32,000 bases of DNA from Candidatus Scalindua sp. (GTDB lineage: Bacteria; Planctomycetota; Brocadiia; Brocadiales; Scalinduaceae): the NCBI GenBank assembly GCA_031316235.1, contig JALDRA010000001.1, forward strand, positions 690,001 to 722,000. The letters run 5' to 3'. This document shows positions 3,093 through 28,088 of the stretch, piece after piece. The translations under genes and the position numbers were made by a program. The notes under the pieces are model-generated. The model did no database searches and was not told the DNA's origin. It saw nothing but the letters and a program-made list of their open reading frames with translations. Every line of letters starts with the position of its first letter. Within the stretch, counting starts at the first letter, position 1.

Positions 3093-3133
3093 AAAAACCC
3101 CTTTCATTAATATAAACTTCGAAATCTTTAGAA

Positions 3134-3274
3134 TATACTGAAACCGATTTGTTTTTAGCTTTTTCAAAAAAACCAAATCCTGGTTAATGGTATCCCCGGA
3201 CAAAAGGTGCCGGGGACTTTACCCGCTCCGTTATCTCTCGGATTCTATCCGAAAACCATTATAAGATGAGTATA
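3134..3274 (+). repeat. MITE-like structured repeat, family 1, copy A
   Basis: tatactgaaaccgatttg...ataagatgagtata. Aligns along its full length with copies at 5585-5722, 7620-7751 and 30789-30957. Confidence 0.8.
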
Positions 3275-3767: not shown

Positions 3768-5300
3768 CTAATTCAAAGCGCCTATCCTCTTCTCTACCGC
3801 GGATAGTAGCAAGCCATCCCGTAATAATTTGTGCATCTTATCAATATCCTCAGAGAGTATCCTATCCTCCTCCAGGTGCGTAATATGTTCCCTGATTACC
3901 GAGTACGCCTCTTTTGTTCCTGCCCCTGCCTTAAGATTGGTAAACAGATCCATGGCCTGTGCAGCACATAATAATTCAATAGCAATCACGTTCTCAACAT
4001 TAAACAATACCTGTTTGCACTTTCTTGCTGCAATACTCCCCATGCTCACGTGATCTTCCTTGTTGGCTGAGGTCGGAATTGAATCAACGCTGGCTGGATG
4101 TGACAAGATCTTATTTTCTGATACGAGGGCGGCAGCCGTATACTGGGCAATCATCATACCGGAATTTAATCCCGCATCCTTAACCAGAAATGCCGGCAAC
4201 CCGCTTAAGAGCGGATTTACGAGCCTTTCTATTCTTCTCTCAGAAATATTGGCTATCTCCGAAAGAGCAATCGTGAGAAAATCCATGGCAAGGGCAACTG
4301 GCTGACCATGAAAATTACCCCCGTTATTAAATATCTCACCTGTTTCCGCAAAAATTAACGGATTCCCTGTAGCAGAGTTTATTTCCGTTCCCACCACGTT
4401 TTTTACAAACTCTAACGCGTCTTTAGATGCACCGTGCACTTGAGGGCAACACCGTATCGAATAGGCGTCCTGCACCCTCGTACAATCTCGATGGGAAGAA
4501 ATTATCTCACTGTCACCTGTGAGCCTTCTTAAATTTTCCGCACTTAAAAGCTGTCCATTATGAGGCCTTACCGCATGAATCTTTTCATTCAGCTCAATGT
4601 TTGAGCCCAGGAGGACCTCAAGACTCATGCCGGCAGCTATGTCTGCTGTCTTCAATAATCTCACCGCATCATATACCGTGAGAGCACCACTGCCCGTCAT
4701 TACCTGGGTACCATTTACCAATGACAACCCTTCGCCTGCATCAAGTTCAACAAGGGGAATGCCCGCCGCTCTCATGGCCTGCTTTCCCGACAGCAGCTTC
4801 CCTTTATATACGGCCTTCCCCTCACCTATCAGGACGAGTGCCACATGCGCCAGGGGAGCAAGATCACCGCTTGCCCCTACCGAGCCTTTTTCCGGAACAA
4901 GAGGATGAACACCCTTGTTCAGCATATCAACCAGGGTCTTAACCGTGTGAAACTGTATGACCGAGTGCCCTTGAGCAAGCCCATGAATCCGTAAGAGCAT
5001 TATTGCGCGAACCGTCTCTTCCTCAAATGAATCACCGACACCTGCAGAATGGCTGAGTATGATGTTTTTCTGAAGCTGTCTTCTCTGCTCTACAGAGATA
5101 AAGACATTGCTCAAAGCTCCAAAACCCGTCGTTACGCCATAGACCTCCTGTTTATCCTTAATGGTACTCTTGATTATTTTCTGAACCGCCGTTATCCTGG
5201 CTCTCACCACTTTGTCAAGGCTCACCCCGGCATTTTCCCGGGCGACACGCACTACATCGGCAATCGTAAGATCTACACCATTTACCATCACACTCTTCAT
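3768..5300 (-). CDS. hutH: Histidine ammonia-lyase family (MIO-dependent aromatic amino-acid lyase)
   Basis: MIO-forming motif GSVGASGDLAPLAH. LSHSAGVG has the Ser-His pair typical of HAL rather than PAL/TAL. Start moved to MKSVMVNG. Confidence 0.8.
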   Translation of the reverse strand: MKSVMVNGVDLTIADVVRVARENAGVSLDKVVRARITAVQKIIKSTIKDKQEVYGVTTGFGALSNVFISVEQRRQLQKNIILSHSAGVGDSFEEETVRAIMLLRIHGLAQGHSVIQFHTVKTLVDMLNKGVHPLVPEKGSVGASGDLAPLAHVALVLIGEGKAVYKGKLLSGKQAMRAAGIPLVELDAGEGLSLVNGTQVMTGSGALTVYDAVRLLKTADIAAGMSLEVLLGSNIELNEKIHAVRPHNGQLLSAENLRRLTGDSEIISSHRDCTRVQDAYSIRCCPQVHGASKDALEFVKNVVGTEINSATGNPLIFAETGEIFNNGGNFHGQPVALAMDFLTIALSEIANISERRIERLVNPLLSGLPAFLVKDAGLNSGMMIAQYTAAALVSENKILSHPASVDSIPTSANKEDHVSMGSIAARKCKQVLFNVENVIAIELLCAAQAMDLFTNLKAGAGTKEAYSVIREHITHLEEDRILSEDIDKMHKLLRDGLLLSAVEKRIGALN

Positions 5301-5584
5301 AGGACTCTCAACAATAACCAAGGGGAAAAGAGCCGGGAGATCCAGAACCCTTACCCGGATCATGATACTTATCGCTGATATGGGGGAACGATTACCCGTA
5401 TCACTATACCCATATTGCCATGATAAACATCAGTCCCTCATATTCTCTGAATATGGTGCCTGCACGGTCACCAGGCCTCTGTAAAAATAGTGCCACACTA
5501 TATTAAGTATTTAAACAGGTCTGTCAATAAAAAGTCACCGATTTATCACCGTTTACCGTCTATCGTATTAACTTTACCGATAAT

Positions 5585-5722
5585 TAAACTCATCTTATAA
5601 TGGTTTTCGGATAGAATCCGAGAGATAACGGAGCGGGTAAGGTCCTCGGCGCCTTGTCCGGGGATACCATTAACCAGGATTTGGTTGCCGGTAAAACCGA
5701 AAACCAGATCGGTTTTAGTATA
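5585..5722 (-). repeat. MITE-like repeat, family 1, copy C
   Basis: Its reverse complement is near-identical to copy A (same subfamily: cctggttaatgg...ccgctccgttatctctcggattctatccgaaaaccattataagatgag). One terminal hexamer is taaact instead of tatact. Confidence 0.8.
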
Positions 5723-7483: not shown

Positions 7484-7619
7484 TCCAGGTGGCTGCCCAT
7501 TCATCAAACGGTCAAAGTTGTCTCTTTCCCTGATTTAATGGATGAAGAGTTGATATGTTCTCGTTCATGGTAAGCATGGCAGAGACTGAGATTATAAAGG
7601 GCTGCCCCCCCTCACAATA

Positions 7620-7751
7620 TATACTGAAACCGATTTGGTTTTTCTGAAAAACAAATCTTGGTGAAGGTATCCCCGGACAAAAAGCGCCGAGGACTTTACT
7701 CGCTCCGCTTTTACTCGGATTTTATCCGAAAACTATTATGAAATGAGTATA
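7620..7751 (+). repeat. MITE-like repeat, family 1, copy D
   Basis: tatactgaaaccgatttggttttt...ggtatccccggacaaaaagcgccgaggactttactcgctc...aaatgagtata. Lies between convergent genes. Confidence 0.8.
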
Positions 7752-10321: not shown

Positions 10322-10395
10322 GCGCCCTTAGCTCAGCCAGGCAGAGCAACTGACTCTTAATCAGTGGGTCGTAGGTTCGATTCCTACAGGGCGCA
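10322..10395 (+). tRNA. tRNA-Lys (anticodon CTT), CCA not encoded
   Basis: Acceptor GCGCCCT/AGGGCGC, anticodon stem ACTGA/TCAGT with loop CTCTTAA, T arm GTAGG TTCGATT CCTAC. Confidence 0.9.
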
Positions 10396-10633
10396 AATCT
10401 TTTTTCTCCCACAATTTACACTTAACTTCCTTACTTTAAAAGGCTTAAATTAGCACAAGCCCCTCACTTCAAATCTGCTAAAACTGTAATAAATGTATCA
10501 ATATGTTACAATTTATAGGCAGAGTATGGGCAAGAAAAACTTCGCAGGCAGAATATGGGCAGAATTTTGCAATCAGTGGATCGTTGACGACCCATAAAAT
10601 GAATCAATCAGTAAGTCGTATATTTTTGGTGAT

Positions 10634-10705
10634 CTTACCTCCTCTTTTTCTTCTTTGATTGTCATAGTTTGTCATATTGACTTTGATTGTATTACTAGAT
10701 AACAT
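10634..10705. promoter_or_regulatory. Divergent regulatory module, copy 1 (minus-strand RBS remnant, TTGTCATA direct repeats, plus-strand TTGACT-17-TAACAT)
   Basis: cttacctcctctttttcttctttgattgtcatagtttgtcatattgacttt is near-identical to 28164-28216 and related to 14335-14416. Confidence 0.6.
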
Positions 10706-10759
10706 GCTTTTTTTCAGGTTATCTATAAACTTATTAATTACTTATTATCCGGAGAAATC

Positions 10760-11392
10760 ATGAAACCAATAGGTATATTATTAATCGTGTTGGGGATAGC
10801 CATGGCAATAGGTAGTGTCTGGCTTTCGCACATAGAGTTGCGTAATACATTTCGTAACGAAATTGCTCAAATTGGCTCTTCTGCTAATACGCCCAATACA
10901 TCAATATCCGCCACTTCCGCAATTACTCAAGCCAGATCTCAACTAATTCAATCTCGCCGCGAACTTGATAGAACCCTCTCTGAATTAAGGTCTGTGAAAA
11001 CAGCAATGGTCGGTTTTTCAAGGCTAATACAACCAAGACCCGGTGAAGATACAAGTAGAGCTCAAGCCGCTGTGAGAAATGCACAAGGTAATCTTGAAGA
11101 ATTGCAGAGACGAGTGGAGGCCATGAATGCTACTGCATTAAGAGCGGAATCTGAAACTCGGGATGTGATCATGCAATATGAAAATGCATTAAATATTGCA
11201 GCGGAAGAGGCACTAAAGAAAAGCTCGCCGAAAACTAATGTAACAACACTCGCACTACCGATTATTGGGGCTCTGGTTAGCGTTACAGGATTAGTATTAA
11301 GCTGGAGAAGCAAAGAGGTAGAAAAACAGAAAACCTTGTTAGAAATTGCTGAATTACGGCAGAAATTAGAAGCAACTGAATCAACCGGATAA
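10760..11392 (+). CDS. Hypothetical membrane protein: N- and C-terminal TM helices flanking a coiled-coil-like region
   Basis: ggagaaatc RBS. MKPIGILLIVLGIAMAIGSVWL at the N-terminus and LALPIIGALVSVTGLVLSW near the C-terminus. The middle is Q/R/E/L-rich. Confidence 0.6.
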   Translation: MKPIGILLIVLGIAMAIGSVWLSHIELRNTFRNEIAQIGSSANTPNTSISATSAITQARSQLIQSRRELDRTLSELRSVKTAMVGFSRLIQPRPGEDTSRAQAAVRNAQGNLEELQRRVEAMNATALRAESETRDVIMQYENALNIAAEEALKKSSPKTNVTTLALPIIGALVSVTGLVLSWRSKEVEKQKTLLEIAELRQKLEATESTG

Positions 11393-11445
11393 CAAAGGGC
11401 TCCAAGGGACGCTTCGCTACGTGCCCCTGAGCCCAGGCGTTAGCC
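11390..11445 (+). terminator. Long imperfect hairpin (REP/terminator-like) at the stop codon of the 210-aa gene
   Basis: taacaaagggctc ... gagcccaggcgtta arms. A related ggctaaca... element lies at about 12955-13015 after the next gene. Confidence 0.3.
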
Positions 11446-11469
11446 ACGAAAAAAAAATCACGACATGTT

Positions 11470-12849
11470 ATGAAAATTAAGAAATCAGAAGGTGTTACAG
11501 CTACAGAAAAATTACTAGCTGATCTATGTGAAAACACTTTCCTTAAATTATGGTCTTACCCTAATCCGTTTAATGACAACCAAGACGAATTGTGTGATTT
11601 GTTGGCTGTTTTCGAAAATCATATATTTATTTTTTTTGATAGAGAGAACCTCACATTACAAAATGAGAGTAAAGAACCAAATGTAATTTGGAATCGATGG
11701 AAGAAAAAAGTAATAGATGCTCAAATTCGAACAGCTAACGGAGTGGAAAGATACATACTTCAATCTAGAAAAATCTTTTTAGATCAAAAAAAAAGCATTC
11801 CTTTACCAATAGAATTTGACGTAAAAAACATTACTATTCACAAAATAATTATCGCCCATGGTGCAAAAGAAGCTTGCAAACAATTTTCTGAAAATAATAT
11901 CTATGGAAGTTTAGCTATTTCATACGGAGAACATACTAAAAAACTTCCATTTCCATTTTTCATAGATCTAGACAAAAGCAATCCTGTACACATTTTTGAT
12001 TCCCATAATTTACTAATAATTTTCTCAGAATTAGATACATTTTCTGACTTTACCACCTACTTAGATGCCAAGATAATGGCTATCAAGAAATACAATGCTT
12101 TGGTCTATTGTGGTGAAGAAGATCTGTTGGCCCATTATTTCATAAATTTTGATAAAGATAACAATCGTCATTATATCGGAACATTGGATGAGGGGGTGAA
12201 TGGTATCATCATCAGAGAAGGTGAGTGGCATGACTTTGTAGATCGCAAAGAGTATAAAGCCAAAAAGAAAGCTGACAAGGAATCCTACCTCTGGGATGAC
12301 ATTATACAGAGAACATGTGGGCATACATTAGATGGAACAATATTAGGTGTGAACACACCCCTGGAAGGGAAAAGCGCAATTCATGAAATGGCAAAGGAAC
12401 CCCGATTTCACAGGCGTTACCTTTCAAGTCACATGATAAAAGCAATCCAATCTTTCCCAGAAAGCAAAGACAAAATAGTCAGAAAAATTTCTTTAATGCC
12501 TTCATTTTTCAAAGGTAAGTCATATCTCTTTCTTCAATTGAAAGTCCAAGGTTTTTCAGAAACATATGAAGAGTACAGGGAAAAGCGGAGAACAATGCTT
12601 GAAATTGCTTGTGGTACTGCGAAGAACAAATTTGAACATTTAGATACTATCGTAGGAATAGCTATTGATGCGCCTAAGTTCTCAAAGACAAATTCAGAAG
12701 ACTTTATCCTGATGAACTGCGCAAACTGGTCTGAAAAAAAAAGAGATTATTATAAAGACCTCAATAGGAATTGGAATTTCTTCGAAACTGATAATTTGTC
12801 AATGCAATACAAAACTACAACCGAATTTCCTCTGGAATCTTCAACATAA
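11470..12849 (+). CDS. Uncharacterised 459-aa protein; possible nuclease-like N-terminal segment; member of a SEC-C-tailed family
   Basis: N-terminal EKLLADLCENTFLKLWSYPNPF...ELCDLLAVFENHIFIFFDRE...WNRWKKKVIDAQ resembles proteins I recall ending in a SEC-C motif. The in-frame SEC-C relic follows (next feature). Confidence 0.65.
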   Translation: MKIKKSEGVTATEKLLADLCENTFLKLWSYPNPFNDNQDELCDLLAVFENHIFIFFDRENLTLQNESKEPNVIWNRWKKKVIDAQIRTANGVERYILQSRKIFLDQKKSIPLPIEFDVKNITIHKIIIAHGAKEACKQFSENNIYGSLAISYGEHTKKLPFPFFIDLDKSNPVHIFDSHNLLIIFSELDTFSDFTTYLDAKIMAIKKYNALVYCGEEDLLAHYFINFDKDNNRHYIGTLDEGVNGIIIREGEWHDFVDRKEYKAKKKADKESYLWDDIIQRTCGHTLDGTILGVNTPLEGKSAIHEMAKEPRFHRRYLSSHMIKAIQSFPESKDKIVRKISLMPSFFKGKSYLFLQLKVQGFSETYEEYREKRRTMLEIACGTAKNKFEHLDTIVGIAIDAPKFSKTNSEDFILMNCANWSEKKRDYYKDLNRNWNFFETDNLSMQYKTTTEFPLESST

Positions 12850-12945
12850 AAAACCAGAATTGGAAAATTTGGAAGAAATTCCCCATGTCCTTGAGGTTCA
12901 GGGAAGAAATATAAAAAGTGTTACAGAAACATTATATATAATTAG
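12850..12945 (+). pseudogene. In-frame relic of a SEC-C metal-binding tail, cut off by TAA (12847) and carrying TGA at a Cys position
   Basis: In the frame of the 459-aa ORF this reads KTRIGKFGRNSPCP*GSGKKYKKCYRNIIYN*, compared with the canonical GRNdPCPCGSGKKYKKCC. Confidence 0.6.
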
Positions 12946-13089
12946 AAAAATAGGCTAACAAAACGTTCCACCGGAAATTTTTTCCGCTGCACTCCAAAGT
13001 TTCTGGTGAACTAAACGAGGGAATAGGGTCAGACCTTGAATATAGAATAATACGAGGGAATAGGGTCAGACCTTGAATATAGAATATGC

Positions 13090-13118
13090 TTGACAAGCAG
13101 GAGTATTAGATCAATAAT
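13090..13118 (+). promoter_or_regulatory. Candidate sigma70 promoter of the element (TTGACA-17-AATAAT)
   Basis: ttgaca agcaggagtattagatc aataat, 9 nt before the ATG at 13127. Conserved in copy 2 (21714-21742). Confidence 0.4.
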
Positions 13119-13126
13119 ATGCCGTT

Positions 13127-14103
13127 ATGGCACGACCCTGGAGAATACAATATGAAGGTGCAATTTATCACGTCATGTCGAGAGGAGTAGGCAGAGGAGA
13201 GATTTTTCTTACCAATGGAGATTATTCAAGATTTATGGAATATATGGCAAGCGTCAGAGAAAAGTTTAATTTAGATATATTTGCATTTGTCTTGATGGCT
13301 AATCATTACCATATTCTTTTAAGAACGAATGATGCAAATCTTTCAAAGGCCATGCAATGGATACAGACCGCCTATAGCATTTATTACAATCGCAATCATA
13401 ATCGCTGTGGACATCTTTTTCAGGGAAGATATAAGAGCGTTCTTGTCGAAAATGAATCTTACTGGCACATTTTAAGTTTATATATACATTTGAATCCCAT
13501 ACGAGCCGGCATGGTTGAAAAGCTGAGAGAGTATAATTGGAGTAGCTATCATGATTATGTTAACGTCAGGAAAAAGAAATAAGTGGGTAAACAGCGAAGC
13601 TGTTTTAGAGGGGATATGTAGTGACAAACAAGAATCCAGGAGGGAATATAGAAAATTGATCCGGAAAGCATCCGGTAGAGAAAATGACTTCCTTGAAGAC
13701 ATAAAGTATGGAATGATTTTGGGAAGCGATAAGTTTGTGGAGTGGGTGCAAAGGAAGTTTATAGACCGAACGGAGAAAGAAGATGCTGACTTACCACAAA
13801 AAAGAGAATAAGTGATGATGGTGTGATCGAAAAGGTAATAGAAGAGATAATACATAATTATAAAATAGACAAGACCACACTACTACAAAGAAAAAGGCAT
13901 ATACCATTTTGAAGCCAGAGATGTAAGTATGTATATATTGAAGACGTATACAGGGGCTATCAAATAAAGTAATAGGTGAGATGTTTGGAGTAAGTATAAG
14001 TGCAGTAAATAAAGCAGCAATACGTATAAATAAGCAGAGTAAAACAAGTAAGGCCTTTAGAAGGAAATTAGAGGAGATTACGCATTCTACTTTCAAGGTC
14101 TGA
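13127..14103 (+). pseudogene. Y1 (HUH) IS200-like/COG1943 transposase fused to a DnaA_C-like HTH; four homopolymer frameshifts
   Basis: HUH = ANHYHILL and Tyr motif LFQGRYKS. Relative to copies 2 and 4 there are indels at about 13566 (A5 vs A4), 13798 (A6 vs A7), 13908 (T4 vs T3) and 13953 (G4 vs G3). Confidence 0.75.
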
Positions 14104-14144
14104 CCCTGGATTTTTTTCAAGGCCTTCAACAGCCTGGAAAGAGT

Positions 14145-14330
14145 CTATTTGCCAGCGAATACGTTATGGTGGAGTATGATATCGCGTATTCCGCCTTGAT
14201 TGACATCGAGTACAACCTTGCCTATATAGTTATTGTTTATCACCTCATGTTTAGTGAGAAGTAAAACGAGCTCTTTTTTTAGATCCTTCTCTCGCTTCCG
14301 GATATCCTCGACCAATCCGTTTTGACTCAT
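14145..14330 (-). CDS. Small protein (61 aa), possibly DUF2292/YezD-like
   Basis: Strong RBS gaggaggtaaggggg. GKVVLDVNQGGIRDIILHHN resembles the YezD beta-hairpin pattern, recalled from memory. A truncated homolog lies at 28089-28163. Confidence 0.45.
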   Translation of the reverse strand: MSQNGLVEDIRKREKDLKKELVLLLTKHEVINNNYIGKVVLDVNQGGIRDIILHHNVFAGK

Positions 14331-14334
14331 CCCC

Positions 14335-14439
14335 CTTACCTCCTCTTTTTTAATGATCCATATGTAACTTAATTATTTTCCATCATCTTCGATTTTCATG
14401 GTTTGTCATATTGACTTTTTAGTAGATTAATGGTAAATC
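14335..14439. promoter_or_regulatory. Divergent regulatory module, copy 2 (TTGACT-17-TAAATC toward 14486; RBS toward 14330)
   Basis: cttcgattttcatggtttgtcatattgactttttag aligns with cttctttgattgtcatagtttgtcatattgactttttat in copy 3. Confidence 0.55.
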
Positions 14440-14485
14440 ATTTACTGGTTATGATCACCACATAATTTCCTTATCGAGAATAAAT

Positions 14486-16018
14486 ATGGCAAGAAAAAAT
14501 GGTAAAAGAAAAAAAAGACAATCCAAAAAAGGAAATTTTACATCAATTGCAAAACACAAACGTTCAGGTAACGTACTAGGTACTGTAGCCTCAGATTTAA
14601 ACATGAAGATAATCGAGTGGGAACGAGATCTAATGCCTGAACATTTATGGCTCGATCTTCTTGCAGATGAATACAAAAAACTACAATGGCATGATATCTA
14701 TAATGAATTCCTCGACAAAATAGATTCCGTTCTCGATGAAGAGCGTAAAACTCCTTTCTTAGGACTTATTTCAGACTTTGGTATTTTGACAGAAAATGAA
14801 AAGAATAAATTTCTTGAACTTCACAAAGATTTCGCTTACAAGTTCTTTTTTTTACCAATCGGTAAATGCCTATCCTTTTATCCAGAAAATCCAGCAAGTT
14901 GGCTTGTACTTGATGAATGGAAAGACAAAGAGTCAATCGATTTTGTAACTGAACTGAATAAATTATCAAGATCTCTTTTGCGCCTCAAGAAAGCAAAAGA
15001 CCTATATGCTGGTAACTTAAGAGCAGTTCCATTAAATCGATTATTTAAACATAATAAATTATTTCTTAAGGCCGGTGTATGTGACGATTTAGCATCTTTA
15101 CTGTCTAAATATCCAGTTAATTGTTCTGAATATGAACAATACCGCGTTCAGCAGTTTGCAAGAAATTCAATAAATCAATTATTTATGATTACTGATCGCT
15201 ATAAATCAAGAAGTTGGCCGAAATATTTTTGGCGTCACAATCTGAACTTGGTTGTCTGTCGTCCCATTGAGGGTTCATTGAGGAAAGGTGACATCAATAA
15301 GGACGAAGAAATAAAAGAATTGCAAGGTCGCTTCTGGGAAAACTGTATCATTCTAATGAAGTATGTCGATAAAATAGGAATGCAATATCGCTATGACCTT
15401 TACAACCCTATTCCAAATGAAATTAAACTTGGTTTATTTTCACGTATAGTAAGGTTATACATTTCATTCATCTCGAATCCTTTTCTTTGGACGCGAGATC
15501 TAGCCGGAATCATGTTACGTTGCATTGGAGAAACGACCATAATATTTTTTTACTTGGTCAATAAAGGATCAGAGGAAGAGATCAAAGCATTTGAAAATTA
15601 TTCGTTAGGTAAAGAAAAAATATTAATGCTCCATATGCAAGATACTCTTCAAGAAAAACGAACGTTAGAGGGAGAATCTATAGAGGATATATCTAACGAA
15701 CTTGGAGGAGACTTTGTTGCAGAAATGCAAAAAATTGACCTTAAGGGATGGACGAAGAAAAATATAAGAGATCTCTCACTAGAAGTTGGTTTGGAAAATA
15801 TATACAGGTGGGTGGTTGACCCCACAAGTGCAGAAATACATGGATCGTGGTCGAGTATAAAAAAATCAAATCTTGTTTTATGTGCGCAAATTCTTCACAG
15901 ATTTCATCGTGTACCAAAGTTCTATGAACCACCTATTTTTTTAGTACCAATTTATGTCGCCACACGAATTTATTGGGAGCATTCCCGATTTTTTGTAAAA
16001 TATAATAAAAGATCTTGA
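14486..16018 (+). CDS. Uncharacterised 510-aa protein with a highly basic N-terminus
   Basis: Long intact ORF starting MARKNGKRKKRQSKKGNF. No catalytic motif recognised. It ends 31 bp before the methyltransferase gene. Confidence 0.65.
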   Translation: MARKNGKRKKRQSKKGNFTSIAKHKRSGNVLGTVASDLNMKIIEWERDLMPEHLWLDLLADEYKKLQWHDIYNEFLDKIDSVLDEERKTPFLGLISDFGILTENEKNKFLELHKDFAYKFFFLPIGKCLSFYPENPASWLVLDEWKDKESIDFVTELNKLSRSLLRLKKAKDLYAGNLRAVPLNRLFKHNKLFLKAGVCDDLASLLSKYPVNCSEYEQYRVQQFARNSINQLFMITDRYKSRSWPKYFWRHNLNLVVCRPIEGSLRKGDINKDEEIKELQGRFWENCIILMKYVDKIGMQYRYDLYNPIPNEIKLGLFSRIVRLYISFISNPFLWTRDLAGIMLRCIGETTIIFFYLVNKGSEEEIKAFENYSLGKEKILMLHMQDTLQEKRTLEGESIEDISNELGGDFVAEMQKIDLKGWTKKNIRDLSLEVGLENIYRWVVDPTSAEIHGSWSSIKKSNLVLCAQILHRFHRVPKFYEPPIFLVPIYVATRIYWEHSRFFVKYNKRS

Positions 16019-16049
16019 CTTCCTCGTTGTTTTCAACGATAATTCTTCC

Positions 16050-16715
16050 ATGAATTATCCAGGCGGCAAAGGAGGTGTATTCCAAAAGTTAATCAATCTT
16101 ATGCCACCCCATGATGTCTACATAGAGACTCATTTGGGTGGTGGCGCTGTTATACGGAACAAACGACCTGCCAGGAGTAATTTTGGGATAGAAATTGACT
16201 CGGAAGTTGTTGAGATGTGGACAAATATGCATCCAATAGGTTTTGAACTGGTCCATGATGACGCAATTAATTATCTGAATAATTATCATTTCACAGGAAA
16301 AGAACTGGTATATTGTGACCCACCATATCTTCGCGAGACAAGGAAAAAGTATGGACGGCTATATAAATATGACTATAGCCGTGCGCAGCACATCGAACTT
16401 TTGGAAGTTTTGAAAACTCTTCCCTGCATGGTGATGATATCCGGTTACGAGTCAACCTTATACAAAGAATCATTGCGTAGCTGGCAGACACATTCTTTTC
16501 AGGCCGTCTGTCATCATGGCGTAGCAACGGAGTGGTTATGGATGAACTATAGTGTTCCGGTAGGACTGCACGACTATCGTTATCTTGGCAATAACTTTCG
16601 TGAGCGGGAACGGATAAAGAGGAAGACCAAAAGGTGGACAGCGAAACTTAAATCCATGCCTGTATTAGAACGTCAGGCGTTACTATTCGCCATAGATGTA
16701 TTCAGGGAGCGATAG
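16050..16715 (+). CDS. Compact D12-class-like N6-adenine DNA methyltransferase
   Basis: NYPGGKGGVF, ETHLGGGAV (FxGxG-like) and CDPPYL motifs. Unusually, DPPY lies only about 55 aa after motif I, and the C-terminus is basic (FRERERIKRKTKRW). Confidence 0.8.
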   Translation: MNYPGGKGGVFQKLINLMPPHDVYIETHLGGGAVIRNKRPARSNFGIEIDSEVVEMWTNMHPIGFELVHDDAINYLNNYHFTGKELVYCDPPYLRETRKKYGRLYKYDYSRAQHIELLEVLKTLPCMVMISGYESTLYKESLRSWQTHSFQAVCHHGVATEWLWMNYSVPVGLHDYRYLGNNFRERERIKRKTKRWTAKLKSMPVLERQALLFAIDVFRER

Positions 16716-16738
16716 AAGTCTTTTGAAAGGGGGTATTT

Positions 16739-18157
16739 TTGACTTGTGTGGTGAAAAGAAAGATAGAGTCATCCGATAACTGGAGAGCTTTATTTTATGG
16801 TTTTTTAGACACCCGATTGGATAAGATTGAGGAAGAGTACTCAATGGAAGATTTAGGAGAAATCTCAAAAGCTGTTTTCGAAGAGAGAGCGGAGATATTA
16901 GGACAACTGATTCTTGGGTTCATAGAGAGGAAATTTGGACATTTATTGAATCAGCAAAGCTGCGATTGCCCCGAATGCGGCAAGGGTATGCAAAGACAAG
17001 GAAAACAATCCAAGACTATCCAAACCCTTGCCGGACAATTTGAATTAACCAGGCCTTATTTTTATTGCAGAGCGTGTCGTTTAGGATACTATCCTTTAGA
17101 CGAAGCCCTTGGATTGTCTGAATCATCGAAGCAATATGATGTGCAAGATGTGGAAGCCTGGTTGTCAAGCGAAACGGCCTATGAGACGGCCAGCGAAACC
17201 TACGAGAGAATAACCGGAGTAAAGCTGAGTGAACATCATATGCATGAGACCACGAATGCCATTGGTCAAGAAGTGGGAATTTTGGATGTCTGCCCGCCCA
17301 GGGAAGAGATTGATAAGCAGATAGAAAACCTCTCAGTGGATAAGTTTCGTCGTCCCATTATGATGCTTGCCCTGGATGGAGCCCACGGGCCGATGCGTCC
17401 CGAGCCAAGTCCTCACCCCCGTAAAGGGAAAAGAGGCAAGGGAGAATACAAAGAGATTAAAGGTTTTAGACTGTATCTCATCGATGGTCAAACTATTATT
17501 CATTTAATTAGCTGGCACCAGGTTTGTGCAGATCACGAATTAGCAGAATACTTGGTTAAGATCAAAGAAGCCGGGCTTATTCCCCACGAGAAGATACGCC
17601 TGGGAATTATAGGAGACGGTGCTCCCTGGATCTGGAACCGATGTAAAGAAATATTTCCCTCGGCAAAAGAGATTCTCGACTATTACCATTGCTCGGAGTA
17701 TGTCCATGGTGTAGCCAATGCCCATTACGGAAAAGAGACAAGAGAGTCTCTACAGTGGTGTGAGGCGACTCTGACAAGAATATATTATGGTTACCATGAA
17801 GAGGTGCTTGGCGGTCTTGGAAAGATGAAAGCCCGAACTCAAGATATTCAAGATAAAATTGACAAGTTTTATACCTATCTCACAAATCATTGTGAAAAGA
17901 TGGATTACAGTTCCGCCAAGCGTGGAGGATATCACATTGGCAGCGGTGCTATTGAAAGCGCCAATAAATTCATTAGCCATACAAGGCTTAAACGATCAGG
18001 AGCTTGGTGGTATATCCAAAACGCTAATAACATACTCAAGATCAGATGCGCGAAATATAACGGTACTTACGATAAAGTTATCGAAAAATACAAAAGGGAC
18101 GACCAGGAAAGAATTAAAAATAAAAAATTTAAGAGAAGTCTTCGAATTGTTAAATAA
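16739..18157 (+). CDS. ISKra4-family DDE transposase
   Basis: Zn-ribbon CDCPECG...YFYCRACRLGYYPLDEALGL, then LDGAHGP, IIGDGAPWIWN and ILDYYHCSEY. Confidence 0.8.
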   Translation: MTCVVKRKIESSDNWRALFYGFLDTRLDKIEEEYSMEDLGEISKAVFEERAEILGQLILGFIERKFGHLLNQQSCDCPECGKGMQRQGKQSKTIQTLAGQFELTRPYFYCRACRLGYYPLDEALGLSESSKQYDVQDVEAWLSSETAYETASETYERITGVKLSEHHMHETTNAIGQEVGILDVCPPREEIDKQIENLSVDKFRRPIMMLALDGAHGPMRPEPSPHPRKGKRGKGEYKEIKGFRLYLIDGQTIIHLISWHQVCADHELAEYLVKIKEAGLIPHEKIRLGIIGDGAPWIWNRCKEIFPSAKEILDYYHCSEYVHGVANAHYGKETRESLQWCEATLTRIYYGYHEEVLGGLGKMKARTQDIQDKIDKFYTYLTNHCEKMDYSSAKRGGYHIGSGAIESANKFISHTRLKRSGAWWYIQNANNILKIRCAKYNGTYDKVIEKYKRDDQERIKNKKFKRSLRIVK

Positions 18158-18164
18158 ATTTTAC

Positions 18165-18192
18165 AATAAATTGGGAATGCACCCAATTTATT
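18165..18192. other. Perfect 11-bp hairpin just after the ISKra4 transposase stop (probable IS terminus or terminator)
   Basis: aataaattggg aatgca cccaatttatt. Confidence 0.4.
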
Positions 18193-18468
18193 CTATGTGC
18201 CAGGAATTAGCAGAGAACAAATTGGGTTGCCCTCCTCCGGATGAAAGTCTGAAAGAAATTAAAGAGGTCACTGAAGCATTTAATAAAGTTTCTGATAAAT
18301 TCGAATAATTTGTACAGTCATAACACAGCTAATCAACCGACGTAATAAGCCACGCGGTTGATTAGCAGCGAAATGATTCATATCACCCTTATAAAACTCA
18401 ACTTTGTTTTCGTCATCACTTCAGACCCTCTGGTAGCCTCCAATTGTATCCTAAATTGGAGAAAAAAG

Positions 18469-19971
18469 TTAATAACTATGTAATGTTTCTTCCTGAATGC
18501 CAAAAGCATCAAAAATAATTTTCTGCCTTTTAGATAATTCGCTGAGAATTGGATCGTTTTTCTCTATATGAGTAATCTTTAATTTCTTGAGTTCGGCAAA
18601 TAATTCTTTTACCGTGTATTTGTTAAATAACTTTTTTTTCTTCATAACTCTTGATGCTTCCGCATAGATAATTAACGCAACAAATTTTATAAATAAGCGG
18701 CCGTCGGTATTATATTGACTATGTGCTCGCAACCTATCTCCATTCATTTCATTTTTGAATATATCAAACATTTTTTCAACCTGATCTTTTTGGCGATAAA
18801 GATTTAATACTTCAACTTTATCCATTTGTTGTCTGTTTGTTAGTAACACAAAACTCCCCATTTTATAAAGAAATGATTTCACCTTTTTTACATTTTTTTC
18901 TATCCGCAATGTCGTTTTATTCCATTTGAAATACTCTCTATACTTTTCGGGAATATTTAATTTCCTATATTTCAGGTATTCCTTAAGCGCTTTAAATTTT
19001 TTATCCTTAAACGTCTCTTCATATTCGAATAATACTGAGAAAAAACGGTGTTTCTGTTCTACTTCAGATTTTTCATTGAAAAACATATGTGCGTCAAATT
19101 TATTTCCATCAAATTCAAAATGGCTTTGTTGGTAATGCAGTATCTCTTCGTTGAATTTAAAGGCGCTTGAAAGATCTGACAACAATCGTTTATTCTTTTT
19201 TATTAAAGTCTTTACTTTTTTTAAGCTAAAAGGTAGTGGCTGTACGAACGACACTTTGCTTTTACTGTTATTCATTTCCAATACATTTGCTTTGCTAAAG
19301 AAACCTCTATCAAGCACAAATAAAATATCTTTTAGATTGAACACTTTTAAATACTCAACGCAGTTCTTTAAGGTGGTAACATCTACAATGCTTCCAGGGT
19401 ATAAATTGTAATAAATGGGCAAAGAGTGATTGTGACAAAATGTTACTCCCATATTTAATTGAGGCAGATTTTCTTTATCACGATTATAGCCCCATTCTAT
19501 AAAATCAACGTTTGTAGAGTAGCTGGAAATAGAAGTTATATCGTAAAATATCCCGCTGATGGGTTTTAAATGTTCTATCCATTTTTGAACAAACTCTACC
19601 CTTTGTGTTTGCGATCTTCCCAAAATATCACACAGCTTTGATATCTCAGGAGAATACATCTTTTTGACTCTTGGCAAATTATGTTCATCAAGCCAATAAG
19701 GAAAAAGATACAAGGCCGAGGCCTCAATAATTTCATAAAATGCTAATGCTAATATCTCTTGGTAGTTGCCAGGAAAGAGAGATTTTAAAATCTCCGTCAA
19801 TCCAAGCTTGTCTGATAAAAATCTTAGCAAAAAGACATTACCGTATCCTTTTGAGACCAAGCTGGAATGGATTTGCTTGGTTTTTCCCTTATTAGCGTTC
19901 CGTTTTGGACCGATATAAGTTCTTCGTTGACGTGGTTGCTTTTTTGCTTTATCCCAGTAACTTTCTACCAC
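18469..19971 (-). CDS. IS1634-family (IS4-like) DDE transposase, N-terminus degenerate
   Basis: VVESYWDKAKKQPRQRRTYIG, LDRGFFSKANV and VLLTN motifs. The frame stays open to 20043 with no canonical start upstream of the GTG at 19971. Confidence 0.8.
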   Translation of the reverse strand: MVESYWDKAKKQPRQRRTYIGPKRNANKGKTKQIHSSLVSKGYGNVFLLRFLSDKLGLTEILKSLFPGNYQEILALAFYEIIEASALYLFPYWLDEHNLPRVKKMYSPEISKLCDILGRSQTQRVEFVQKWIEHLKPISGIFYDITSISSYSTNVDFIEWGYNRDKENLPQLNMGVTFCHNHSLPIYYNLYPGSIVDVTTLKNCVEYLKVFNLKDILFVLDRGFFSKANVLEMNNSKSKVSFVQPLPFSLKKVKTLIKKNKRLLSDLSSAFKFNEEILHYQQSHFEFDGNKFDAHMFFNEKSEVEQKHRFFSVLFEYEETFKDKKFKALKEYLKYRKLNIPEKYREYFKWNKTTLRIEKNVKKVKSFLYKMGSFVLLTNRQQMDKVEVLNLYRQKDQVEKMFDIFKNEMNGDRLRAHSQYNTDGRLFIKFVALIIYAEASRVMKKKKLFNKYTVKELFAELKKLKITHIEKNDPILSELSKRQKIIFDAFGIQEETLHSY

Positions 19972-20045
19972 TACAGCGACATTTTTTTCTTGCGCCTTTT
20001 GAGCGAATCGGTTAAACTCGTACCCATAGAGTGCAGGAGGACTTT

Positions 20046-21677
20046 ATGGGTAAGCCACCTGAAGGCCGCAGGCTTGTCATTCGAGGCCGGGAAATAAGCG
20101 AAGCGGATATAGCCGTTGTACGTGGTTTGATAGAGCACTATGGCAACCGAGGCCGGGTATATATCTCTATCAAGTTGTCAGAACATTGGCAATGGAAACA
20201 AGCTAACGGACATCTAAAAGATCGTGCATGCCGTAGTATACTGCAATCGTTGTCCGAGAGAGGGCTTATCCAACTGCCTGCTTCCAAAAGGGCACCATCA
20301 TGCAAAAACGAACGTCCGTTAGAACATGTGAGGTTGGATACCACAGAAATCAAGGGAAACATAAAGGTGTTTCTTCCGTTAAAGATAAAGAGCGTAACGG
20401 ATAAAGAAAGTGGCCGCATATGGAAGTACGTCAATAGAAGATATCACTATTTGGGCTATCGAGTATTAGTAGGGCAGAACATAAGGTATTTAATATACAG
20501 CTCTGATCGATTAGTGGCGGCACTGGGCTGGCAATCCGCAGTAGAGCGGTTATATTGCAGGGACATTATCATAGGCTGGAATGTGCAGGAGCGCAGAAAG
20601 GCTTTAGACAAAGTACTAAACAATAGTCGCTTTCTGATCATGCCATGGGTAGAGGTAAAAAATATTGCATCACATATTTTATCACGAGTTGTCCGACAAT
20701 TGCAGAAAGATTGGGTAGAGAAGTATGGCACCCGATTATTATTTCTGGAAACATTTATCGATCCATCAAAATTTTCAGGAACGTGTTATCAGGCAGCTAA
20801 CTGGGTAAAAATTGGCAACACGAAGGGCTATCGTAAAAAGCAGAAAGGATTTATATACCATGGAAACAGCAAGGAGGTTTATTTTTATGTATTAGATCCA
20901 CAAGGCAGACAAAAGATTAAACAAGACAAAACAGAACCATTACTTACCCGAAAGTATCTCCTTTCAAACAGACCTTACAGCAATCTGCCATTGGAAAGGA
21001 GAAGCAGTATGATAGTACGTCCCCCGGACTGGAGTCCTGAAGTAGAACCCGGAGTTGAATTGAGTGCAAGCGATATCGGAAAGCTTGCAACAGAGTTGGA
21101 GAAGTATCACGCATTGTTTGAGGAGGGATTCAGACGGAAAGAGCAGAAAGATTTGAGCTTGTGCTATTTGCAGGGTTTATTAAGTAAGCTTGATCGTAAA
21201 TCGATAGAGCCAATAGCACTTCGACTCCGAGGTAAAGATACAGTACGAAGCTTGCAACGGTTCATGGGAGAGTACAAGTGGGATGGAGAGTTTATCGCTT
21301 CACGGCACAAAGAGGAGCTCTCAAAACTATTGTCCGAAGCTGATGGAGTACTCAGTGTTGATAGTAGCGAAGTGGTGAAAAAAGGAAAGGAATCGGTGGG
21401 AGTAGCTCGCCAATATTGTGGCCGTCTTGGTAAAATAGAAAATTGTCAGTCTGGAGTGTATGTGGCATATACGAGTACGAAGGGGTATGGATTGATAGAC
21501 CGCCGGCTGTATGTGCCTGAAAAGTGGTTTGACCCTGAGTATAAAGAGAGACGTGAAAGATGCAAAGTGCCTAAAAATTTGGTATTCAAGAAGAAACCGG
21601 AACTTGCCGTTGAGATGATTGCTGAATTGAGTAAGAGCGGGCTGTTCCCATTTCGTTGGATAACGTGTGATAGTACA
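20046..21677 (+). pseudogene. DUF4338 (DruA-like) domain fused in frame to an IS701-type DDE transposase; truncated by insertion of Y1-element copy 2
   Basis: RYHYLGYR..GQNIRYL, NNSRFLIMPWVEVKNIASHIL and ETFIDPSKFSGTCYQAANW recall DUF4338. LCYLQGLL..RKSIEPIA and ARQYCGRLGKIENCQSG recall IS701. The homology ends at WITCDS, where the element terminus gggaatagggtcagacc begins. The ATG at 20046 follows aggagg. Confidence 0.7.
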
Positions 21678-22538
21678 CAGGGAATAGGGTCAGACCTTGA
21701 ATGTAGAATATGTTTGACAAGCAGGAGTATTAGATTAATATTATGCACTATGGCACGGCCCTGGAGAATACAATATGAAGGTGCAATTTATCACGTCATG
21801 TCGAGAGGAGTAGGCGGAGGAGAGATTTTTCTTACCAATGACGATTATTCAAGATTTTTGGAATATATGGCAAGCGCCAGAGAAAAGTTTAATTTAGATC
21901 TATTTGCATTTGTCTTGATGGCTAATCATTACCATATTCTTTTAAGAACGAATGATGCAAATCTTTCAAGGGCCATGCAATGGATACAGACCGCCTATAG
22001 CATTTATTACAATCGCAATCATAATCGCTGTGGACATCTTTTTCAGGGAAGATATAAGAGCGTTCTTGTCGAAAATGAATCTTACTGGCACATTTTAAGT
22101 TTATATATACATTTGAATCCCATACGAGCCGGCATGGTTGAAAAGCTGGAAGAGTATAATTGGAGCAGTTATCATGATTATGTTAACGTCAGGAAAAGAA
22201 ATAAGTGGGTAAACAGCGAAGCTGTTTTAGAGGGGATATGTAGTGACAAACAAGAATCCAGGAGGGAATATAGAAAATTGATCCGGAAAGCATCCGGTAG
22301 AGAAAATGACTTTAAAGAAAAAGGCATATACCATTTGAAGCCAGAGATGTAAGTATGTATATATTGAAGACGTATACAGGGCTATCAAATAAAGTAATAG
22401 GAGAGATGTTTGGAGTAAGTATAAGTGCAGTAAATAAAGCAGCAATACGTATAAATAAGCAGAGTAAAACAAGTAAGGCCTTCAGAAGGAAATTAGAGGA
22501 GATTACGCATTCTGCTTTCAAGGTCTGACCTTGGATTT
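21678..22538 (+). mobile_element. Y1/HUH-transposase element, copy 2 (internal deletion of about 230 bp)
   Basis: Termini agggtcagaccttgaa (21686-21701) and ttcaaggtctgacctt (22517-22532). The right flank has tandem ccttggattta x2. Confidence 0.7.
21750..22352 (+). pseudogene. Y1 transposase, N-terminal domain intact, middle deleted, HTH out of frame
   Basis: MARPWRIQYEGAIYHVMSRG...ANHYHILL...QGRYKS. The junction gaaaatgactt|taaagaaaaaggcatatacc skips the LEDIKYG...LLQRK segment present in copies 1 and 4. It is read as part of the 773-aa chimeric ORF in the track. Confidence 0.75.
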
Positions 22539-22663
22539 ACCTTGGATTTATGTGGTCTCTGTCAAAACAAGGAATCAGTCGATAGCCACTTAATCCCAAA
22601 GGCTACCTATCGGACTGTAGCTGCTAAATCCAAATCTAATAACCCAGTTTTGACTTTAGGTTA

Positions 22664-24118
22664 ATGAATTTTTCAAATACTTACGCATGTTTGAATGAAG
22701 TTTTTTACGAGAAAACACGTCCTACACGTGTTCTGGACCCACACCTTTTTTTGTGGAATTCCAGCTTAGCTGAACAGCTAATGATTCCAGATGAACTGAA
22801 AAATGACCCGGTTGCTTTGGCACAAGTTTTCTCAGGAAACCACATTATGCCCGGATCAGAACCCATTGCAACTGTCTATGCAGGACACCAGTTTGGCAAC
22901 TTTGTTCCCCAACTTGGAGACGGAAGAGCACATCTACTCGGAGAAGTGCTCGATCGATTCGGTCAAAGGTGGGACATTCAACTGAAAGGTTCCGGTCCGA
23001 CCTTATTTTCCAGAGGAATGGATGGCCGTTGTGCTATTGGCCCAGCTGTTCGAGAGTTCATAATGAGTGAGGCCATGAGTGCTTTAGGTGTTCCGACAAC
23101 GCGTTGTTTGGCAGTTGTCACTACGGGTGAACCGGTTTTCCGTGAAACTCCATTACCAGAAGCTATCGTGACACGAGTTGCTTCAAGTCATTTGCGTATT
23201 GGTACTTTTCAGTTCTTTGCGGCTCAAGGTGATCATCAAGCCCTCAAGACTCTGTGTAGTTATACGATTGAACGTCACTATCCAGAGTTGCAGGAAGAGG
23301 GACCGAATCAATATATTCTGTTTATCGATAAGGTTATCGAAAGAGTGATTCAACTTGTCGTTGAGTGGATGAGGGTCGGGTTTATTCACGGTGTCATGAA
23401 TACGGACAACATATCTATTTCCGGAGAAACCATCGACTATGGCCCTTGTGCCATGATGGGGACCTATGATCCGCAGACCGTTTATAGTTCGATTGATACT
23501 ATGGGACGATATGCTTTTGGCAAACAGCCTGGAATTGCACAATGGAACATAGAACGATTCATCGAATGTCTGTTACCACTCATTAACGCTGACACGAATA
23601 AAGCAATAGATCGGGTCGGACCTATTATTACAGAGTTTCCTAACCGGTTTGAGCAAGTATATATGAAAATGATAGGAAAGAAGCTTGGACTGGCATCTTT
23701 TCAACAAGAGGATCAGAAACTTATATTTTCTATTCTGGACCAACTCAAGAAGAGGAGGTTAGACTATACTGTCACTTTCGATCTCTTGACAAAATCATTG
23801 ATGTCTGAAGCTGCAACTTCTCAGATGAAGAGTGAACTAGGGGAGTGTTTTGACTTTTGGAAAAAGCGATTAAACGAGCAAGACGCAACTTCTCAAGAGG
23901 TGCAAGAACTTATGAGAAAACACAATCCTGTGGTAATCCCGAGGAACCATCATGTCGAAGCAGTAATTCAAGAGTGTGAGCAGACCGGTGATGTTACGTT
24001 GGTCAAGAAATTTCTCAAAGTACTTCGATCTCCTTATGAAGAGCTGGAACAAACATCCCAGTATCAAGACTTGCCGAGTGATGGCGATAAGGATTATCAA
24101 ACTTTCTGTGGAACATGA
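22664..24118 (+). CDS. selO: Protein adenylyltransferase SelO (YdiU/UPF0061 pseudokinase-fold AMPylase)
   Basis: [42 protein letters not shown] and [22 protein letters not shown] are hallmark SelO motifs. Confidence 0.9.
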
Positions 24119-24197
24119 AACACATCTTTTTTTTTACACTTGCTGCAGAGTTCCAAGCACCTCATTCAAACGTTAGCCATTAATAAATGAGTTGAAT

Positions 24198-24626
24198 ATG
24201 ATTTTTCATAAACTTGACAAACATCGTGATAAAGGCCTTCTCATTTTGAGGGTTGGCATTGGTATAATGTTTATGTGTCATGGTTTTCCTAAACTAACAG
24301 CAGGGCAGGAAGTATGGACAAAGCTTGGTGGAGCATTATCAGCCGTGGGTATAAACTTTGCTCCTGCTTTTATGGGTTTTATGGCAGCTATCTCTGAATT
24401 TGGAGGTGGTTTATTGCTAGTGCTGGGGCTATTTACGCGCCCTGCGTGCTTATTTTTGTTAAGCACAATGGTTGTAGCCACGCTAATGCATGTAAAAAAT
24501 GGTGATCCATTTATAAAGTACTCTCATGCCCTTGAGTCAGCTATCCTTTTTTTCAGTCTTTTGTTTATTGGTCCTGGTAAAATTTCATTAGATGAGAAAT
24601 TATTTAAAAACAAAGAAAATACCTAA
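24198..24626 (+). CDS. DoxX-family membrane protein
   Basis: LLILRVGIGIMFMCHGFPKL plus three further TM segments. ATG at 24198 preferred over TTG at 24192. Confidence 0.75.
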   Translation: MIFHKLDKHRDKGLLILRVGIGIMFMCHGFPKLTAGQEVWTKLGGALSAVGINFAPAFMGFMAAISEFGGGLLLVLGLFTRPACLFLLSTMVVATLMHVKNGDPFIKYSHALESAILFFSLLFIGPGKISLDEKLFKNKENT

Positions 24627-24704
24627 CGAATGAATGAAGCGGACAAGCAATGCTTGCCACTCATCTTAACGTTCGGTAGAGATAAATACAAAAGGACATG
24701 TAGC

Positions 24705-24881
24705 ATGAGTAAATCTACTAAAATAGAAGAACTAACATCACATGAAGTGAGCCAACTGCTTACTAATAAGAAATTTTCTAAGTTGAAACCTTCAAGCTGC
24801 AATCTATGTGGAGAAAAAAAAGGGTTTTTAAGAAGAATATTTGAGGTCTACGGAGTGGCTTGGTTTAGCGGTAATTGTTAA
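24705..24881 (+). CDS. Possible small hypothetical protein (58 aa)
   Basis: Internal ATG of ORF 24630..24881, preceded by aaagga. No motif recognised; may be spurious. Confidence 0.25.
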   Translation: MSKSTKIEELTSHEVSQLLTNKKFSKLKPSSCNLCGEKKGFLRRIFEVYGVAWFSGNC

Positions 24882-24919
24882 GCGTCACAGCTTGTCAGGG
24901 ACAATCAAAAACAAAAAAT

Positions 24920-25855: not shown

Positions 25856-25933
25856 CAATGTATAAAAATATTAGCAGCTTTGGTGCGTAATCAAAGTCGT
25901 TTTTCTTATATTTACAACGGTTCTAATCGGAAA

Positions 25934-26217: not shown

Positions 26218-26220
26218 TCA

Positions 26221-28062: not shown

Positions 28063-28088
28063 TTGATATTTTGACCTCTTATAATTTT

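Follow-up and report, generated by a model that had tools for sequence, protein, structure and literature searches.

What kind of element is the short regulatory module that is repeated in a 32,000-nucleotide stretch of DNA from a metagenome-assembled genome of the anammox planctomycete Candidatus Scalindua sp. (GenBank assembly GCA_031316235.1, contig JALDRA010000001.1, positions 690,001 to 722,000 of the forward strand; this whole stretch is hereafter called the window)? Three copies of the module are present, each at the left edge of a different block of genes, and the original prediction, made from the letters of the window, had read them as the conserved end of a family of integrative elements accreted in tandem or, alternatively, as a shared operator that places unrelated cargo under one regulator. 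According to the present analysis, the alternative is the better supported of the two, the regulator itself being putative: the module is probably (estimated probability about 0.55) a sigma-70-type promoter with an upstream operator that precedes many unrelated genes and, for this reason, defines a regulon or a reused promoter, two of the three copies in the window being products of recombination.

Architecture of the module copies

Re-reading of the sequences located the copies on the plus strand at 10634-10705 (copy 1), 14335-14439 (copy 2, the most complete form) and 28164-28237 (copy 3, the native promoter of a cation diffusion facilitator (CDF) gene), and the predicted order of their parts was recovered in all of them, i.e. 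direct repeats at 10-bp spacing, TTGACT followed by a TA-initial hexamer, and, on the other side, a ribosome-binding site (RBS) in reverse complement. The repeats have the form TGTCAT-N4-TGTCAT with a period of 10 bp in all sites; the half-sites read TGTCAT..TGTCAT in copies 1 and 3 and TTTCAT..TGTCAT in copy 2. In each copy TTGACT begins 2 nt beyond the second repeat and is separated from the TA-initial hexamer by a spacer of exactly 17 nt. Copy 1 consists of a dead RBS remnant (10634-10644), the decamer repeats (10659-10676), the −35 hexamer TTGACT (10677-10682) and the −10-like hexamer TAACAT (10700-10705); the corresponding parts are an RBS (14336-14346), the repeats TTTTCATGGT and TTGTCATA (14393-14410), the −35 hexamer (14411-14416) and TAAATC (14434-14439) in copy 2, and an RBS variant (28164-28177), the repeats (28191-28208), the −35 hexamer (28209-28214) and TATATG (28232-28237) in copy 3. 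The RBS sequence itself is the reverse complement of GAGGAGGTAAG in copies 1 and 2. A third repeat in phase with the −35 hexamer was considered and rejected, as TTGAC starts 8 nt and not 10 nt after the second repeat. Relative to the promoter, the decamers cover approximately positions −37 to −56, with the consensus TTGTCAT(A/G)(G/T)T and an A+T content of 72%.

The 24-mer TTGTCATAGTTTGTCATATTGACT that spans this region was matched on the plus strand at 10659 and 28191 without mismatch and at 14393 with two mismatches (variant TTTTCATGG), as compared to no match in 100 dinucleotide-preserving shuffles of the window. The octamer TTGTCATA occurs seven times in the window (1.56 expected); each of the two copies of a ~170-nt repeat family (see below) holds a stray occurrence. 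Copies 1 and 3 share a stretch of 39 identical nt (10646-10684 and 28178-28216) that starts immediately right of the RBS and extends three bases beyond the −35 hexamer, with no relatedness further on; copies 2 and 3 are homologous from the inside of the small minus-strand gene to about position +10 of the plus-strand transcript. In all, 39-61 nt are common to the three copies, each of which precedes unrelated genes. Copy 2 contains an additional 31 nt with −10-like hexamers for the minus-strand gene, a segment retained only here and at locus L004, so that two promoter-like sites are present on the minus strand of copy 2 (ATGACA-16-GATGAT and ATGAAA-16-AATAAT), whose −35-like hexamers derive from the reverse complement of the decamers. 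No known RNA element was detected by Rfam in the module or in the leader of the CDF gene (gathering threshold; E <= 1 on 28150-28340).

Distribution and conservation of the core

The 20-nt core TCATNGTTTGTCATATTGAC was searched for in 185,579 genomes, each representing one species, and was found at six places, all of them in three Scalindua metagenome-assembled genomes (MAGs), two per genome; all six sites are intergenic and each is aimed at a downstream gene. A scan of metagenomes with a relaxed pattern yielded one genuine extra site (L016), the other eight of its nine matches being located inside coding sequence of other taxa and looking like chance, as did two identical matches in a viral scan. 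Three degenerate core sites within 8 kb were recovered in locus L019 by a mismatch-tolerant search. Based on these scans, the element is confined to the genus Candidatus Scalindua, in which the core and its −35/−10 geometry were found at at least 10 further promoters with unrelated downstream genes. Among ten aligned sites, TTGACn, the 17-nt spacer and the TA of the −10 hexamer are kept in at least eight; L006 carries three tandem decamers. Comparison of orthologous promoters revealed a distinct footprint: the core is identical at 22 of 22 positions between L001 and L003 and at 20 of 22 (91%) between L016 and L019, the flanks showing 47-50% and 47-52% identity, respectively.

The genes behind these promoters are diverse. 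Each of the three modules in the window precedes a different plus-strand cargo, as had been predicted (a 210-aa and 459-aa pair, a DitA-type protein with a methyltransferase, and the CDF transporter). At L001 and L003 the downstream gene encodes a 188/195-aa membrane protein with a C-terminal CxxC motif, at L002 a PilZ-like protein followed by open reading frames (ORFs) taken by eye as QueE and QueC, and at L005 a 226-aa protein, with the gene of a giant secreted alkaline phosphatase (Pfam, 9e-38) behind it. In L016 (344-486) and L019 (1064-1181), a cyclic di-GMP-I (c-di-GMP-I) riboswitch lies downstream of the motif promoter and is followed by the gene of a secreted Lcl_C-domain protein; the further L019 sites precede genes for a CDF transporter and a MopE-like copper-binding protein. 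The module was absent in front of CDF genes of other phyla. On a Scalindua-like contig (L026, ~4640-4746), the CDF gene keeps its −10 hexamer and leader TATATGATTTCCTCATAGTTCACC, and unrelated sequence next to an ISL3 transposase replaces the operator and the −35 hexamer; operator and CDF leader are therefore separable.

A dispersed intergenic repeat of this kind might also be the terminal part of a scattered insertion sequence (IS) or miniature inverted-repeat transposable element (MITE), in which case the original prediction would lose its basis. MITEs and IS abound in Scalindua genomes, and a short-read contig breaks inside the module. However, no inverted partner was found on either strand of the window with up to three mismatches, no inverted-repeat pair involves the module, no target-site duplication is visible and no transposase is consistently adjacent; furthermore, outside the paralogous set of the window the independent sites have only 22-24 nt in common, with no element body around this core, and their orientation is always toward the downstream gene. 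An IS or MITE end was thus rejected, being extremely improbable. Taken together, the restriction to one lineage, the intergenic contexts, the kept geometry and the footprint argue for a functional promoter-operator. Transcription would start at these sites and a trans-acting protein would occupy the decamers. That the copies of the window have more than the core in common would follow from their being paralogues of one longer unit, comprising the 5' end of the small gene, its RBS, the operator and the promoter.

Probable recombination between module copies and the tRNA-Lys region

Copies 1 and 3 bound a mosaic segment of 17.5 kb (10685-28177) that is absent from the orthologous locus L019 of another Scalindua MAG. 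In pairwise comparison (BLAST, MAFFT), window positions 10555-10683 match L019 7854-7982 (88% identity over 129 nt) and positions 28163-29083 match L019 7932-8846 (88.5% over 921 nt), and the two matches overlap on the module, so that in L019 the sequence left of copy 1 directly adjoins that right of copy 3. The order there is a truncated Phage_integrase gene, two tRNA-Lys-like fragments, an RBS remnant, a degenerate module, a −10 hexamer and leader of the copy 3 type, and the CDF gene; the L019 module differs at several positions from copies 1 and 3, although these two match each other over 39 nt. In the window, these flanks are separated by the segment, which lies between direct copies of the module, the pattern expected from recombination between such copies. 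On this reading, copies 1 and 3 would be the two products of one event, which would have placed or kept an IS-ridden mosaic island between the attachment-site (att)-like remnants of tRNA-Lys and the CDF gene, either by Campbell-type insertion of a circular DNA carrying a module or by deletion of the segment in the lineage of L019.

The homology breakpoints around the modules are variable (copies 1 and 3, L004, L019 site c, L026), and a Logan short-read contig with an identical CDF gene (L032) ends inside the module at its position 1, at a distance of 134 nt from the downstream ATG, as would be expected if the assembly had broken off at the repeat. The varying breakpoints, the mosaic flanks and this contig end favor homologous or illegitimate recombination at a dispersed repeat over a dedicated site-specific recombination site.

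The tRNA-Lys-like sequences upstream of copies 1 and 3 that the original prediction had pointed out are indeed present. The intact tRNA-Lys(CTT) gene (10322-10395, plus strand; ARAGORN; Rfam 70.8 bits) anchors them: two degenerate fragments, frag-a (10571-10587, 3 of 17 positions mismatched) and frag-b (10606-10622, 4 of 17), are located directly left of copy 1 on the plus strand (10571-10622). Chance alone would give about 0.3 such matches in the whole window, and the fragments have orthologous counterparts at L019 7870-7921 in a region of 88% identity. In front of copy 3, a 26-nt sequence (28037-28062, plus strand) matches 10352-10377 exactly, i.e. tRNA positions 31-56 from the anticodon arm to the T-stem, and resembles an att core; the repeat stops at tRNA position 56, and the 3' 18 nt are without a second copy. 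It is abutted by an arm-like element of 177 nt (27860-28036, plus strand) with tandem TGTAGTCAA (11-bp) and GGAATCA (21-bp) repeats, of which a copy with 80% identity occurs in opposite orientation at L001 4848-5007, there abutting what appears by eye to be the 5' half of another tRNA (GGGGGATTAGCTCAGTTGGGAGAGCG...). The 177-nt element may be the arm of an integrative element with anticodon stem-loops as its target.

These remnants are an argument for a different function of the decamers, namely as arm sites of a tyrosine integrase, so that the att core, the small gene as a possible excisionase, the decamers and the outward promoter would together form the conserved end of a family of elements integrating in tandem into tRNA-Lys. 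The arm sites of lambda-type P' arms are indeed direct repeats of 10-11 bp in tandem; copies 1 and 3 are situated 10-130 nt right of tRNA-Lys-like fragments, the truncated Phage_integrase gene of L019 runs straight into frag-a and frag-b, being directly left of them, and arm-like sequence of the 27860-28036 type abuts tRNA fragments in two genomes. In contrast, no tRNA-Lys-like fragment was found in the flanking DNA examined of L001-L006 and L016, and neither an integrase nor the small gene was noticed by these sites (ORF lists were read, few ORFs being passed through Pfam), which precede conserved chromosomal genes and exhibit footprint conservation. Moreover, the L007 orthologue of the small gene lacks the decamers, the fixed TTGAC-17-TA geometry is left unexplained by an arm function, no Phage_integrase match was obtained among the ORFs of the window, and the homology breakpoints vary around the module. 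An arm function is thus quite unlikely. Of the proposed family of integrative elements, the att-like remnants, the truncated integrase of L019 and the bracketing of 17.5 kb by copies 1 and 3 stand; the role of the module as its conserved end does not, given a window without integrase, variable breakpoints, and other sites most of which lack att-like sequence, integrase and small gene. What remains at the locus is a tRNA-Lys island region in decay; the module is a host-type promoter that became involved in its rearrangements and is no diagnostic mark of an element's end.

Compared with tRNA-linked islands that grow by tandem accretion, the locus shares the intact tRNA-Lys at one edge, a tRNA segment as direct repeat, an integrase remnant (in L019) and a mosaic of IS and defence genes; it deviates in that the 26-nt repeat is internal (positions 31-56) and lacks the tRNA 3' end, no integrase is present in the window, and the block boundaries are promoter modules instead of tRNA repeats. 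A further reading regards the module as the expression-and-capture site of an integron-like platform, in which incoming genes are joined directly behind the regulated promoter next to tRNA-Lys, either through a recombinase, be it the L019-type integrase or one related to it, or through a dedicated pathway. This would explain why synteny repeatedly breaks at or inside the modules (copies 1 and 3, L019 site c, L026 and L004), and the arrangement parallels the integron (intI, attI, Pc promoter and cassettes) in that variable cargo is expressed from a promoter adjacent to a recombinase-associated site. Unlike in integrons, however, no attC-like or repeated hairpin site was found at the cargo ends in the repeat search, the window contains no integrase, the L019 integrase remnant is co-oriented and truncated, no fixed breakpoint exists, and each cargo has its own promoter copy. 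Such a platform has very little probability.

The putative reader of the operator

The TGTCAT half-site is known from operators of OmpR/PhoB-family regulators: the PhoB sites of E. coli carry it (e.g. TGTCATAAAGTTGTCACG and TTTCATAAATCTGTCATA; PMC10294691), as does the CusR box TGACAAnnTTGTCAT, with CTGACAn5GTAAT as a second consensus of the CusR/CopR box (PMC11195947). As in the Pho box, the sites described here consist of two TGTCAT-type 7-bp direct repeats approximately one helical turn apart and adjacent to the −35 region; the TTTCAT..TGTCATA of copy 2 resembles the phoB site TTTCATAAATCTGTCATA. The likeness to the CusR/CopR box is more limited, since the window sites are direct repeats and not a palindrome; only L002 possesses an inverted upstream ATGACAAAC-TGTCAT, at a spacing 1 nt shorter than in the CusR box. 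Generally, winged-helix regulators of the OmpR/PhoB family bind head-to-tail on direct repeats one helical turn apart that adjoin the −35 hexamer. This standard mechanism together with the half-site likeness favors a winged-helix response regulator of the OmpR/PhoB family as the reader of the decamers, an assignment that we make tentatively and at somewhat less than even odds. Bound head-to-tail by the −35 hexamer, the regulator would attract RNA polymerase to the promoter; in the case of copy 2 it would, in addition, block access to the −35-like ATGACA and ATGAAA hexamers of the divergent small gene, so that one protein could control both divergent transcripts.

A strong constitutive promoter would not need such a regulator: the AT-rich decamers would then be a UP-like element contacted by the alpha subunit of RNA polymerase, and the promoter would have been spread by recombination. 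The region from −37 to −56 is the zone of UP elements, and the base composition of the decamers is compatible with this function; the −35 hexamer is near-perfect, and the element precedes functionally unrelated genes. However, the exact conservation of 22 nt next to flanks of ~50% identity is tighter than UP elements need, the 10-bp direct-repeat structure is clear (with three repeats in L006), and the half-sites match known response-regulator sites. A constitutive promoter is accordingly considered unlikely.

Several observations weigh against a regulated promoter read by a PhoB-like protein and shaped by recombination. The −10 hexamers are weak, and in a generic promoter scan copy 1 alone exceeded the threshold. 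No response-regulator gene adjoins any of the sites; the sole regulator-type gene noticed near one of them encodes a REC-plus-histidine-kinase hybrid by L006 (domains assigned by eye). The E. coli Pho box replaces the −35 hexamer and lies ~10 bp upstream of the −10 hexamer. In contrast, the present sites possess their own TTGACn −35 hexamer, have no −10-like hexamer 10 bp past the box, and show a period of 10 bp instead of the 11 bp (7-bp repeat plus 4-bp spacer) of E. coli. The degenerate L019 sites carry substitutions inside the half-sites (TGTAAT, TGTCCT, TGCCAC, TTTACA), which is unexpected under a strict base-specific reading. The gene content likewise provides mixed hints: of approximately 13 downstream operons, only one is clearly phosphate-related (the alkaline-phosphatase operon driven by L005, the other sites not being phosphate-looking) and two are metal-related, two genes being linked to c-di-GMP, so that, in contrast to the Pho and CusR operators, the downstream genes are mostly neither phosphate nor copper genes. 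Finally, insertion in the window and deletion in L019 both fit the comparison of the two genomes.

The divergent 61-aa gene

The small gene on the minus strand exists in the states that had been predicted, i.e. intact at 14145-14330, where it diverges from module 2 and encodes a 61-aa protein, truncated at 28089-28163, and without any reading frame left at copy 1, where only the RBS remains. The intact gene product is identical to an annotated Scalindua hypothetical protein and has two conserved homologues; the truncated paralogue (24 codons, minus strand), read from the ATG at 28163 as MDGSKAMEYLGMREKDLQKWQIEI and ending there in a stop codon, is homologous to the 5' third of the intact gene and conserves the REKDL motif. 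Copies 1 and 3 lost the 31-nt −10 segment, which fits their dead small genes. The range of the protein comprises Scalindua and, as remote relatives, small proteins beyond this genus. No Pfam, PHROG or PADLOC-type family was found for it; a resemblance to DUF2292/YezD was not confirmed, as none of P0001-P0003 (E <= 10) and none of ten remote relatives (E <= 1) matched the corresponding Pfam model, and the AlphaFold model (pLDDT 64) was too poor for a fold search. At the locus of the orthologue P0003 (L007), no decamer operator or motif is present upstream of the gene.

The position of this gene suggests that its product might read the operator itself, as a new, very small DNA-binding regulator that autoregulates at copy 2 and acts in trans elsewhere. 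In accordance with this proposal, the sole intact gene copy is placed divergently against the operator whose reverse complement provides its −35-like hexamers, the protein is conserved in Scalindua, i.e. over the same range as the motif, and the −10 segment is deleted where the gene is dead. On the other hand, neither Pfam nor PHROGs revealed a DNA-binding domain, the confidence of the structural model is low, the orthologue P0003 has no upstream operator, and remote relatives exist beyond Scalindua, where the motif is absent. The protein is in consequence the weaker regulator candidate as compared to an OmpR/PhoB-family protein, with only a slight chance of being the reader.

Gene content of the island and other repeats

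The gene order begins with tRNA-Arg, tRNA-Lys, the two tRNA fragments, module 1 with cargo 1, a RAYT element (13025-14107), the 61-aa gene on the minus strand and module 2 with cargo 2; three transposase genes with RAYT copies, SelO, DoxX, a DsbA-like protein, a ParE-type toxin-antitoxin pair, the arm-like element and the tRNA-Lys core follow, and the truncated small gene facing module 3, module 3 itself and the CDF transporter gene complete the series. The interior of the 17.5-kb segment is typical island material, with a DitA candidate, a decayed methyltransferase, transposases and a toxin-antitoxin pair.

Cargo 1 (10760-12849, plus strand) encodes a 210-aa membrane protein and a 459-aa protein of the SEC-C family (Pfam). 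The latter belongs to a widespread family of ~490-aa proteins with a SEC-C motif (1671 homologues across phyla) and has lost the SEC-C tail; its gene region (11438-12974) is 92% identical at the nucleotide level to L030 862-2396, where it has different neighbours (a DpnII-MboI/DUF2321 protein, an integrase fragment and defence-like genes). The 459-aa gene is thus horizontally mobile. Homology to the 459-aa protein of L007 was tested and rejected. Cargo 2 (14486-16715, plus strand) consists of the genes for a 510-aa DUF5677 protein, which matches the candidate defence protein DitA of PADLOC (E = 3.1e-25), and for an internally deleted D12-class adenine methyltransferase (Pfam), PADLOC also giving MTase_II matches; a UPF0236 transposase gene is next after the deleted methyltransferase. 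Cargo 3 (28321-28935, plus strand) is the gene of the 204-aa CDF efflux protein (Pfam Cation_efflux). Among its 7126 homologues, the best 120 (plus the protein itself) are 82-90% identical and include proteins of Gammaproteobacteria, Omnitrophota and Fermentibacteria, an unusual conservation across phyla that suggests frequent horizontal transfer. The SEC-C-family protein and the CDF transporter are thus two genes in or by the block with 60-90% identical homologues across phyla.

Other repeats are frequent in the window. Three RAYT-like copies (13025-14107, ~21679-22546 and ~25935-26803; IS200/Y1 transposase with DnaA_C helix-turn-helix) are bounded by 24-nt inverted repeats AGGGTCAGACCTTGAATATAGAAT, and one copy is located inside a DDE_5/DruA-like transposase gene, resulting in a 773-aa fusion ORF (20031-22352). 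A MITE-like family (3132-3274, 5585-5722, 7617-7751 and 30785-30957) shows 75-90% identity to copies in other Scalindua MAGs, and inverted copies flank a histidine ammonia-lyase gene (3768-5363). The ~170-nt repeat family mentioned above has two copies (27030-27199 and 30616-30786; 85-87% identity) with the inverted repeats TGTCCGGTTAGG...CCTAACCGGACA.

Implications for gene regulation in Scalindua

In kind, the module is a transcription-factor operator fused to a promoter and reused before unrelated genes, a fairly ordinary type of feature; nothing about it is unexpected in kind, and promoter reuse has been described before. 'Putative mobile promoters' in front of non-homologous genes were documented by Nijveen, Matus-Garcia and van Passel (PMC3575422), who proposed promoter reuse as a path to rapid regulatory rewiring. 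The present element agrees with these as a highly similar intergenic promoter upstream of non-homologous genes, both within one genome and between related genomes; it differs in that its copies are also recombination substrates, here bounding 17.5 kb, in the remnant of a divergent gene, and in the genus-wide footprint of its core. Neither the motif nor the promoter architecture of Scalindua was found described in the searchable literature, and no description of the transcriptional regulation of anammox bacteria at this level was found in the literature searched. Genetic manipulation of anammox bacteria is not yet possible. A footprint-conserved operator-promoter of 22 nt that is specific to one genus therein provides an entry point to a regulon, with phosphate, metal, surface and c-di-GMP as possible themes, and the element is a candidate regulated promoter for expression tools. 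At the same time, dispersed copies of this promoter act as recombination substrates and helped to assemble the tRNA-linked island of defence and IS genes.

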